In this document: one piece after another, positions 8,555 through 9,473 of the stretch
Numbering within the stretch: the first letter of the stretch is position 1
How the letters are laid out: each line of letters opens with the position of its first letter
Assembly: GCF_003334335.1 (NCBI RefSeq)
Contig: NZ_QOWQ01000042.1
Strand: one strand, 5' to 3'
Length of the DNA: 38,099 nt
From: Escherichia coli
GTDB lineage: Bacteria > Pseudomonadota > Gammaproteobacteria > Enterobacterales > Enterobacteriaceae
Translations under genes and position numbers: made by a program
Notes under the pieces: generated by a model
Databases searched by the model: none
Told to the model about the DNA's origin: nothing
Seen by the model: the letters and a program-made list of their open reading frames with translations, nothing else

Positions 8555-8800
8555 TCACCGGATTACCACATCCCACTCCGGCTCCTGCCATCTCAAATCC
8601 GGTGAATCATTTCTCTCAGGAATAACCATTACGTCCTTTTCCCTTCGCTCCCTTTCTATCGCCATCACAGCCAATGCTGCAACCATGATGTATTTTTGTT
8701 CGTCGGTTCCTGTTTCATAACGACGCATGAGGGTAAACTCGGGGCGATCAGTAACCTCAATGATTTCGTTAATTTCTTTAATTTCGCGAGGAATATCCAT
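8555..8800 (-). CDS. hypothetical charged protein (81 aa); start codon overlaps the divergent DUF4145 gene start
   Basis: Met at 8800..8798 with AAGGAG 9 nt upstream on the minus strand (MDIPREIKEINEIIEV...). No family recognised. Real versus spurious not resolvable by eye. Confidence 0.35.
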   Translation of the reverse strand: MDIPREIKEINEIIEVTDRPEFTLMRRYETGTDEQKYIMVAALAVMAIERERREKDVMVIPERNDSPDLRWQEPEWDVVIR

Positions 8801-9473
8801 GGGTTTAGTCTCCTTTGATATCACATGCCCGCACTGTTTAAAAGAGCGAGCTGTTATTGAGGCATTTGCCGAAAAACAAATTGAAAAAACACCTTTTTTT
8901 AACGTCGCTTTTGTATGCAGAAGTTGTCATCGAGGAGGTGTTGCTATTGTTGAAATCCCATCAGACCACTATCACGGTCCCATGGCGGAAAGCCAGAAAA
9001 AAGACCTCGATATTCTGATTTCAGGAAATAGCCAGTACCGTTTCCGCAAGATCTATCCTGTGGTCAAAAAAATTACCGCACCAGAATATACGCCCCCGGT
9101 TGCAGACCGTACTTTTGTTGAGGCAAAAGAGGATTTACAGAGGAGGCGGTACGACACAGTGGTTATTCTTTGTCGCAGAGTCCTCGATATCTCCACGAAA
9201 AAACTGCTCGGCGATGAAGCAGGAAAAGAATCGCTGTCGCAACGTATTCAGATGATTTACAAAAAAGGCCTGATCACTGAACAGATGAAGGAATGGGCTC
9301 ATATTGTACGAATTGATGCCAATAAAGCAGTTCATACAGATGAAGTTTTCACACCAATTGAGGCAAGCCAGATCCTGAGTTTTACCGAAATGTTTTTAGT
9401 CTACGCCTTCACTCTGCCTGCAATGGTGGAAGCCAGACGTGAACAAAAAAGATCAGATTCAGCCTCTATATGA
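8799..9473 (+). CDS. zinc-ribbon plus DUF4145 (HEPN-like) protein, candidate abortive-infection/defence effector
   Basis: N-terminal CPHC...CRSC zinc ribbon. C-terminal RRVLDISTKKLLG...WAHIVRIDANKAVHTDEVF...ILSFTEMFLVYAF fits the DUF4145 pattern (R-x2-[GA]N-x-AxH) as recalled. GAGGAA RBS. About 38% GC and opposite to the surrounding operon. Confidence 0.6.
   Translation: MGLVSFDITCPHCLKERAVIEAFAEKQIEKTPFFNVAFVCRSCHRGGVAIVEIPSDHYHGPMAESQKKDLDILISGNSQYRFRKIYPVVKKITAPEYTPPVADRTFVEAKEDLQRRRYDTVVILCRRVLDISTKKLLGDEAGKESLSQRIQMIYKKGLITEQMKEWAHIVRIDANKAVHTDEVFTPIEASQILSFTEMFLVYAFTLPAMVEARREQKRSDSASI

Follow-up and report, generated by a model that had tools for sequence, protein, structure and literature searches.

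PD-T7-4 was found by functional selection in Escherichia coli (Vassallo et al. 2022; PMC9519451) and has since been renamed RAZR, for ring-activated zinc-finger RNase, in a study of the E. coli UMB1727 protein (Zhang et al., Nature 2026; PMC13017515; PDB 9Y9C/9Y6U). In RAZR an N-terminal Cys4 zinc finger is joined to a DUF4145 domain, which lies C-terminally and functions as a HEPN ribonuclease (RNase), and the defence is abolished by the substitutions R146A and H154A (PMC13017515). The protein works by abortive infection: it builds a 24-mer around the ring formed by SECphi27 Gp77, a putative Erf-like recombinase, or around portal proteins, and once activated it cuts single-stranded RNA non-specifically, thereby halting translation (PMC13017515). 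The zinc finger, which varies more than any other part, binds the trigger and dictates specificity, and function further requires the linker formed by residues 66-79 and the inter-dimer residues V21, D179, D180 and R184; safety is provided by a host that lacks the rings around which this immune RNase polymerises (PMC13017515). Here we analyse a gene, referred to as ZnR-DUF4145 (zinc ribbon-DUF4145), located in a 38,099-nucleotide (nt) stretch of E. coli DNA (assembly GCF_003334335.1, contig NZ_QOWQ01000042.1; hereafter the window). By analogy with RAZR, the product of this prophage gene is probably an abortive-infection RNase of the RAZR type, consisting of a single polypeptide with a variable zinc-ribbon sensor, and in its own clade the gene is accompanied by a conserved small open reading frame (ORF) arranged head-to-head with it.

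In a survey of 2013, Anantharaman et al. assigned the DUF4145 domain to the HEPN superfamily (Pfam clan CL0291) and also recorded its fusions to zinc ribbons and its occurrence in double-stranded DNA viruses (PMC3710099). By Pfam match and predicted fold the protein described here is a member of this DUF4145/HEPN branch (PF13643, CL0291), for which that paper gives a classification at the domain level only. Several other DUF4145/HEPN defence proteins, namely BxaP, Ishtar and those linked to restriction-modification, differ from it in carrying other partner domains. A validated single-protein defence of E. coli that combines a HEPN domain with zinc fingers is DS-38 of DefensePredictor (WP_001313577.1), which is 366 amino acids (aa) long, with an N-terminal HEPN domain and a C-terminal multi-zinc-finger region (PMC13092281). 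Identity with DS-38 was rejected on the grounds of this length, the reverse domain order and motifs that do not appear in the tables of PMC13092281 examined, and the two proteins are placed in different families.

According to both the ORF list and the sequence, the ATG of ZnR-DUF4145 lies at position 8799 and the product has 224 residues. This start was preferred over that of a longer ORF beginning at 8727 because M1 is nearly invariant in an alignment of 30 homologues sharing 37-71% identity. An initial annotation of this DNA, made from its letters, had described the same ORF with CPHC, CRSC and RIDANKAVH motifs, which occupy residues 10-13, 40-43 and 171-179, and had credited the gene with its own ribosome-binding site, which is found as GAGG 6 nt before the ATG. 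In the alignment of 30 homologues C10, C13, C40, C43, R171, N175 and H179 are all invariant. The N-terminal zinc ribbon claimed in that annotation stands, with four Cys ligands. The C-terminal DUF4145 domain that it had proposed was recovered by comparison with profile hidden Markov models (HMMs): PF13643 matches residues 118-197 with an i-Evalue of 8.1e-9 (35.9 bits; model positions 11-88 of 88), and is present in all 83 homologues listed. PHROG 1305, which carries the label 'DNA binding protein', matches over the full length of the protein (E=1.3e-63), and a search of NCBIfam returned no model for it.

An AlphaFold2 model built from the family alignment, with a mean predicted local distance difference test score (pLDDT) of 88.6 and a predicted template-modelling score (pTM) of 0.75, comprises a beta-rich N-terminal domain (strands 4-6, 20-27, 33-40 and 46-52, helix 61-68, strands 72-75 and 81-86) and a helical C-terminal domain with the all-alpha core expected of a HEPN fold. 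Foldseek results were consistent with the modelled fold, at marginal E-values. Together, the Pfam match (clan CL0291) and this fold bear out the membership of the HEPN/KNTase_C superfamily that had been suggested from the sequence. After the Cys4 ribbon comes an extension of helix and strands that is hypervariable (residues 53-84), the family profile weakly matches ribbons of the RPB9/TFIIS type, including 1QYP, which served as the reference in PMC13017515, and the zinc-finger domain is presumed to be the sensor. R171, N175 and H179 are predicted to form the RNase site of the HEPN domain; their R-x7-H spacing lies outside the canonical HEPN Rx4-6H and is the same as that of the experimentally validated RAZR motif.

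The comparison with RAZR made use of a 219-aa query rebuilt from two partial database proteins, which agrees with the chain length of 9Y9C and the numbering of PMC13017515. BLASTP aligned residues 80-212 of our protein with residues 59-190 of RAZR (24% identity over 141 residues, pairwise E=3e-5). Over the linker and HEPN domain, hhalign against an alignment of 24 RAZR sequences gave a probability of 86% (E=5e-6), and the family profile matched 9Y9C in a search of the PDB (E=0.11). An HMM of the full-length sequences (195-240 aa) among 150 family representatives scored RAZR_Ec and all 120 RAZR homologues among the matches listed, the best eight of them at 33.7-40.5 bits. On RAZR_Ec itself it reached 32.5 bits, with 24.2 bits from the linker and HEPN domain and 5.9 bits from the zinc finger, and aligned both CxxC pairs to C16/C19 and C49/C52. 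The opposite search, in which a RAZR HMM was run against the family, was weaker, with 28 representatives matched and a best score of 29 bits. P87, P95 and P99, invariant in the family alignment, are in register with P66, P74 and P79, the first invariant and the other two nearly invariant among the 24 RAZR sequences; E108 corresponds to E88, R126 to R105, and R171/N175/H179 to R146/N150/H154.

Judged by these alignments, the protein belongs to a distant sister family collinear with RAZR and is not a RAZR orthologue. Both are single polypeptides of ~220 aa in which an N-terminal Cys4 ribbon opening with CPHC, a proline-marked linker and a C-terminal DUF4145/HEPN domain with an R-x3-N-x3-H motif follow one another; in both the zinc finger is the most variable region, and both are carried by mobile elements. 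They differ in that the identity of ~24% is limited to the linker and HEPN domain, in that our protein falls under the practical PADLOC threshold for PD-T7-4, and in that its zinc-finger domain is ~20 residues longer, owing to an extra helix and strands in residues 53-84. The inter-dimer salt-bridge residues D179/D180/R184 of RAZR are not conserved in it, and a head-to-head small ORF is present in its clade, whereas none was called at the one RAZR locus examined. The initial description of the protein as undescribed therefore does not hold: a stand-alone zinc finger joined to DUF4145 is the PD-T7-4/RAZR architecture (PMC9519451, PMC13017515), of which we have here a distant homologue. With regard to size, a word-indexed search yielded 1,442 matches at E<=0.001 for the RAZR family, the same kind of search yielded 83 clusters at 90% identity for the ZnR-DUF4145 family, and an exhaustive search at E<=1e-10 yielded 575 clusters of the latter at 50% identity. 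Many close relatives of RAZR (P0085, P0086, P0092 and others) are only 146-168 aa long, start after the first CxxC pair and keep the second CxxC or none; these may be mis-called starts or true truncated zinc-finger variants.

By analogy with RAZR (PMC13017515), the ZnR-DUF4145 protein would be made in the lysogen and be held inactive. Upon infection by another phage, the zinc-finger domain would bind a phage protein, and this binding would bring the HEPN catalytic domains, through the rigid linker, into the arrangement and register in which they are active. The active domains would then cut single-stranded RNA (mRNA, tRNA or rRNA), and the resulting translation arrest would abort the infection and thus protect the lysogen population together with its prophage. 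The anti-phage RNase proposed in the initial annotation is in our judgement probably the correct reading. A more specific version, in which a ring-shaped oligomer (a portal or a recombinase) once more acts as trigger and a large ring assembly forms, is possible but doubtful. Since the inter-dimer residues of RAZR are not conserved, ring-templated assembly is uncertain and higher-order assembly should not be assumed; Y202 and L206, which occupy two of these positions, are invariant hydrophobic residues in the family, and a different interface may be in use.

Several observations weigh against the reading of ZnR-DUF4145 as a RAZR-like defence RNase. The prophage family is known from sequence and models alone. 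Its zinc finger is only marginally similar to that of RAZR (5.9 bits), the best PADLOC match, PD-T7-4, is confined to residues 85-183 (E=0.0022, 15.5 bits), and a single-sequence phmmer search of the PDB gave no match, so that the family profile was needed to find RAZR. In the BLASTP alignment RAZR D179/D180/R184 are replaced by V201/Y202/L206, and in the AlphaFold2 model pLDDT falls below 50 at residues 172-178, the catalytic loop, which is the one low-confidence part. A scan of the + strand upstream of the gene for promoters detected no sigma-70-like site. Finally, Bet-type proteins and phage portals form rings, and under a strict RAZR mechanism the resident Bet-like protein and portals would pose a risk of self-activation.

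The window contains a Stx-type lambdoid prophage (Sepvirinae) in which ZnR-DUF4145 is reversed within the nin region. The minus strand carries the early-right operon, which encodes CII, replication protein O, a DnaC-like protein, DUF1627 and Ren-like/DUF977 products, followed by Ant, NinB, RusA and Q; ZnR-DUF4145 lies on the opposite strand, between the Ren-like gene and higBA, and this corroborates the assignment of the gene to a prophage moron slot made at the outset. From this gene order it follows that the lytic early-right transcript is antisense across the whole of ZnR-DUF4145 before it reaches the small ORF, and such an antisense transcript is a built-in means of lowering the RNase during the lytic growth of the phage itself. 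Escherichia phage PhiR5_2 has the gene at 100% identity, and Shigella phages 75/02 Stx and POCJ13 have it at ~98%.

The small ORF, which the initial annotation did not mention, has no relatives in Pfam, NCBIfam, the PDB (profile search) or PADLOC. Its homologues range from 54 to 93 aa around a conserved core of ~55 aa, predicted by AlphaFold2 to form three helices (pLDDT 77-86), and its net charge is unremarkable, which argues against an obvious nucleic-acid mimic. Of its codon positions the third varies most (0.54 vs 0.36 and 0.30), which is a signature of coding sequence. The two start codons overlap, and the Shine-Dalgarno sequence of each gene is embedded in the first codons of the other. 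Equivalent small ORFs occur at 6787-7002 of locus L012 and 6820-7002 of locus L010, and the upstream ORFs of the Yersinia and Paraburkholderia homologues are related to the small ORF (E=1e-16 to 1e-6) and show the same overlap. Among the loci retrieved, a partner was found for 34 of 57 distinct ZnR-DUF4145 proteins, down to 36% identity of the latter. When viral contigs were searched with the small protein as seed, a ZnR-DUF4145 homologue stood head-to-head with it, with the same overlap, in all 32 loci. The 1.8-kb flanks of 24 representative loci fall into at least seven unrelated groups per side, so that it is the pair itself which is conserved and not its neighbourhood.

The small ORF is missing from the clade of 212-aa proteins and from the loci situated in the int-xis and terminase-lysis slots. 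As other clades lack it, the small ORF is not needed for the function of the RNase, which probably works alone; the simplest view is that it provides this one clade with a layer of regulation or an antidote, and it may serve as an off-switch in the lytic phase. The initial view of ZnR-DUF4145 as a single-gene effector accordingly calls for qualification: members of the family in the int-xis and terminase-lysis slots stand alone, and in the present clade a conserved head-to-head partner is always found. The alternative that the small ORF is a mere backbone gene at an insertion hotspot is made less likely by the unrelated flanks, yet the ORF does survive replacement of the RNase gene. Such replacement by other cargo is seen in phage phiSTEC1589-Stx1c (L093 1686-2500) and in 11 complete E. 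coli genomes (H83-H93), where homology to the window stops at 8796 and returns at 9547, and where the small ORF is retained with ~96% nucleotide and 92.6% protein identity. The replacement cargo consists of a gene for a 166-aa hypothetical protein, encoded on the operon strand and without a PADLOC match, plus ~300 nt.

These features raise the question of whether the two genes form a toxin and its antidote or switch. In that case a HEPN RNase toxin would be neutralised or silenced at prophage induction by the small three-helix protein, itself co-transcribed with the lytic operon on a transcript that is antisense through the RNase gene, and the outcome would be self-immunity or plain addiction instead of a sensor-gated single protein. 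The case for it draws on the overlapping-start pair being kept across so wide a range of divergence, on the pairing in all loci of the small-protein-seeded search despite their unrelated flanking contexts, and on the coding signature and mutually embedded Shine-Dalgarno sequences. The small ORF also persists, much like an orphan antidote, in 11 of 48 E. coli genomes, those in which the RNase gene has been replaced. There is in addition a functional parallel in phage T4 Dmd, a protein of ~60 aa by which the HEPN RNases RnlA and LsoA are directly neutralised, although Dmd and the small ORF share no similarity of sequence or fold. Against this, whole clades (the 212-aa clade, the int-xis slot) tolerate the RNase without the partner, and RAZR needs no antidote. 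Nor do the two proteins co-vary, since a small ORF 96% identical is found beside ZnR-DUF4145 alleles that are only 71% identical. An AlphaFold2 model of the RNase fused through (GGGGS)5 to the small protein, computed from 28 sequences aligned in pairs, reached a pTM of 0.50 with no docking signal, which is a weak negative. All things considered, we hold a toxin-antidote pair to be rather improbable.

A joint reading would retain the RAZR-like RNase and assign to the pair, as a two-gene cassette, the task of solving the problem of self-targeting. The lysogen would express the RNase, which would sense phage assemblies and in this way guard against superinfection; once the prophage is induced, the lytic transcript would first cross the RNase gene in antisense and afterwards give rise to the small protein; and with the RNase thus silenced or neutralised, the portal and Bet rings of the prophage itself would trigger no suicide. 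A precedent by analogy is BstA, a prophage abortive-infection system with a self-immunity device of its own, the anti-BstA element, and a BstA-like gene is also present within this prophage. We regard the cassette as unlikely.

That ZnR-DUF4145 might act not against other phages but in the life cycle of its own phage, for instance in the turnover of host or phage transcripts or in the choice between lysis and lysogeny, is suggested by its position within the regulatory/replication region of temperate phages and by the part that HEPN RNases play in RNA processing as well. The distribution of the gene speaks against this. In each prophage context examined the homologue is a lone gene, reversed with respect to its neighbours and to the lytic operons, and the slots are unrelated: the nin region, as here, in an stx-carrying phage; the interval between replication genes and nin region in Yersinia; in Enterobacter, that separating int-xis from the early-left operon; in Citrobacter, that between small terminase and lysis genes; and, in a Paraburkholderia prophage, the early region. 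The gene is also rare, being found in 37 of 5,426 complete E. coli genomes, in all of them on the chromosome, and other cargo can substitute for it at its slot. Its N-terminal domain diversifies sharply, mean pairwise identity being 36% for residues 1-84 and 22% for residues 53-84, compared with 66% for the HEPN domain. Between the window and a Stx phage encoding a 71%-identical protein (L003), the flanks are 97-100% identical at the nucleotide level and the gene interior 56-84%, a pattern that suggests allele exchange or diversifying selection restricted to ZnR-DUF4145. In this same comparison (window 8812-9336) divergence is greatest at codons 80-130, corresponding to the linker and first HEPN helices. 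Rarity, movement between slots, reversal and N-terminal diversification are typical of accessory defence cargo and not of a core phage function, and a role in the phage's own life cycle is accordingly very unlikely.

A zinc-ribbon nucleic-acid-binding regulator with a non-catalytic, HEPN-like helical domain, as the 'DNA binding protein' label of PHROG 1305 and of the RefSeq records of 75/02 Stx and POCJ13 and the occurrence of RPB9/TFIIS-type ribbons in nucleic-acid machinery might suggest, is extremely improbable, for we located no experimental basis for that label, the strict invariance of R171, N175 and H179 is unexpected in an inactive HEPN domain, and in the closest characterised relative, a catalytic RNase, the equivalent residues are essential.

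Systems of the kind formed by a zinc finger and a DUF4145 RNase are thus already known from RAZR/PD-T7-4; what the present locus adds is the divergent sensor domain, the residence in Stx-type prophages that make ring proteins themselves, and the conserved head-to-head orphan partner. The presence of a RAZR-like protein on a temperate phage whose portal and own Bet-like recombinase form rings challenges the logic by which RAZR is safe, and makes this family a direct test case for how prophage abortive systems avoid firing at their own induction. The head-to-head small ORF is an obvious candidate for preventing such firing and, if the cassette reading were true, would be a new type of dedicated factor directed against RAZR-like proteins. 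The size of the family, its carriage by Stx phages and its longer, fast-evolving zinc-finger sensor imply new trigger specificities to be mapped. Current defence finders would miss the family, because its PADLOC scores are below threshold and its RefSeq labels read 'DNA binding protein' or 'DUF4145 domain-containing protein'. The features of the locus are compiled in the table below.

Table. Features of the ZnR-DUF4145 locus and of its prophage surroundings, in window coordinates.
Feature	Coordinates	Strand	Basis and remarks
ZnR-DUF4145/HEPN gene	8799..9473	+	ORF list, Pfam, PHROG; 224 aa, stop codon 9471-9473 included
Shine-Dalgarno GAGG of ZnR-DUF4145	8789..8792	+	Sequence; 6 nt before ATG, within codons 3-4 of the divergent small ORF
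Zinc-finger domain, residues 1-84	8799..9050	+	Invariant Cys4, AlphaFold2 model, weak profile match
Cys4 ribbon C10/C13/C40/C43	8826-8837 and 8916-8927	+	Conservation
Proline-marked linker, residues 85-99 (P87, P95, P99)	9051..9095	+	Conservation; hhalign and BLASTP to RAZR 64-79
DUF4145-type HEPN domain, residues 100-212	9096..9434	+	Pfam, AlphaFold2 fold
Predicted catalytic motif R171-x3-N175-x3-H179 (RIDANKAVH)	9309..9335	+	Invariance, RAZR alignment
Small partner ORF, PHROG 8371	8555..8800	-	81 aa; PHROG E=9e-56, head-to-head homologues
CATG palindrome, overlapping divergent start codons (2 nt)	8798..8801		Sequence; kept at every partner-bearing locus
AAGGAG Shine-Dalgarno of small ORF (CTCCTT on +)	8810..8815	-	9 nt before ATG, within codons 4-6 of ZnR-DUF4145
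HigB-like toxin / helix-turn-helix antitoxin pair (higBA)	7741-8500	+	Same strand as ZnR-DUF4145, 300 nt upstream
GC-rich hairpin	9497-9516		7-bp stem CCCCGTC/GACGGGG, 6-nt loop
Ren-like gene	9506-9943	-	Early-right operon
BstA-like abortive-infection gene	14313-15074	+	PHROG 6287 E=2e-82; PADLOC BstA E=2.5e-20 over C-terminal part
Large exonuclease, Bet-like single-strand annealing protein, RecE-like exonuclease	18497-22330	+	
Bet-like annealing protein gene	20868-21653	+	PHROG 252 E=2e-125

With respect to transcription, no + strand terminator was predicted between higBA and ZnR-DUF4145, so that co-transcription is possible, and transcription of ZnR-DUF4145 by read-through from higBA is possible but unproven. 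As a functional partner HigBA was rejected, its adjacency to ZnR-DUF4145 being limited to the E. coli Stx-phage context. The hairpin listed in the table sits within the 32-nt gap that separates the convergent 3' ends of ZnR-DUF4145 and the Ren-like gene, overlaps the Ren-like stop codon and went unreported by the terminator scan because it lacks a T-run. The low GC content noted initially is confirmed in direction, although the difference is only modest: the gene has 43.3%, and the prophage and host parts of the window have 48.4% and 50.5%. Bet-like, exonuclease and integrase genes occupy 18.5-24 kb of the window, and host DNA appears to start after the integrase, where matches to phage families mostly end.

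Remoter homologues of the ZnR-DUF4145 protein occur in Klebsiella phage 2b LV-2017, at 46% identity and with no feature annotated beneath the match, in Burkholderia phages phi644-2 and phiBt-TXDOH (34% identity) and in Escherichia phage Cartapus (26% identity, at the extreme start of the genome). The BstA-like gene of the window lies directly downstream of that for the cI repressor, and in a Yersinia prophage that carries a ZnR-DUF4145 homologue a BstA_C gene (L011/L012 11490-12410) is also found beside the repressor.

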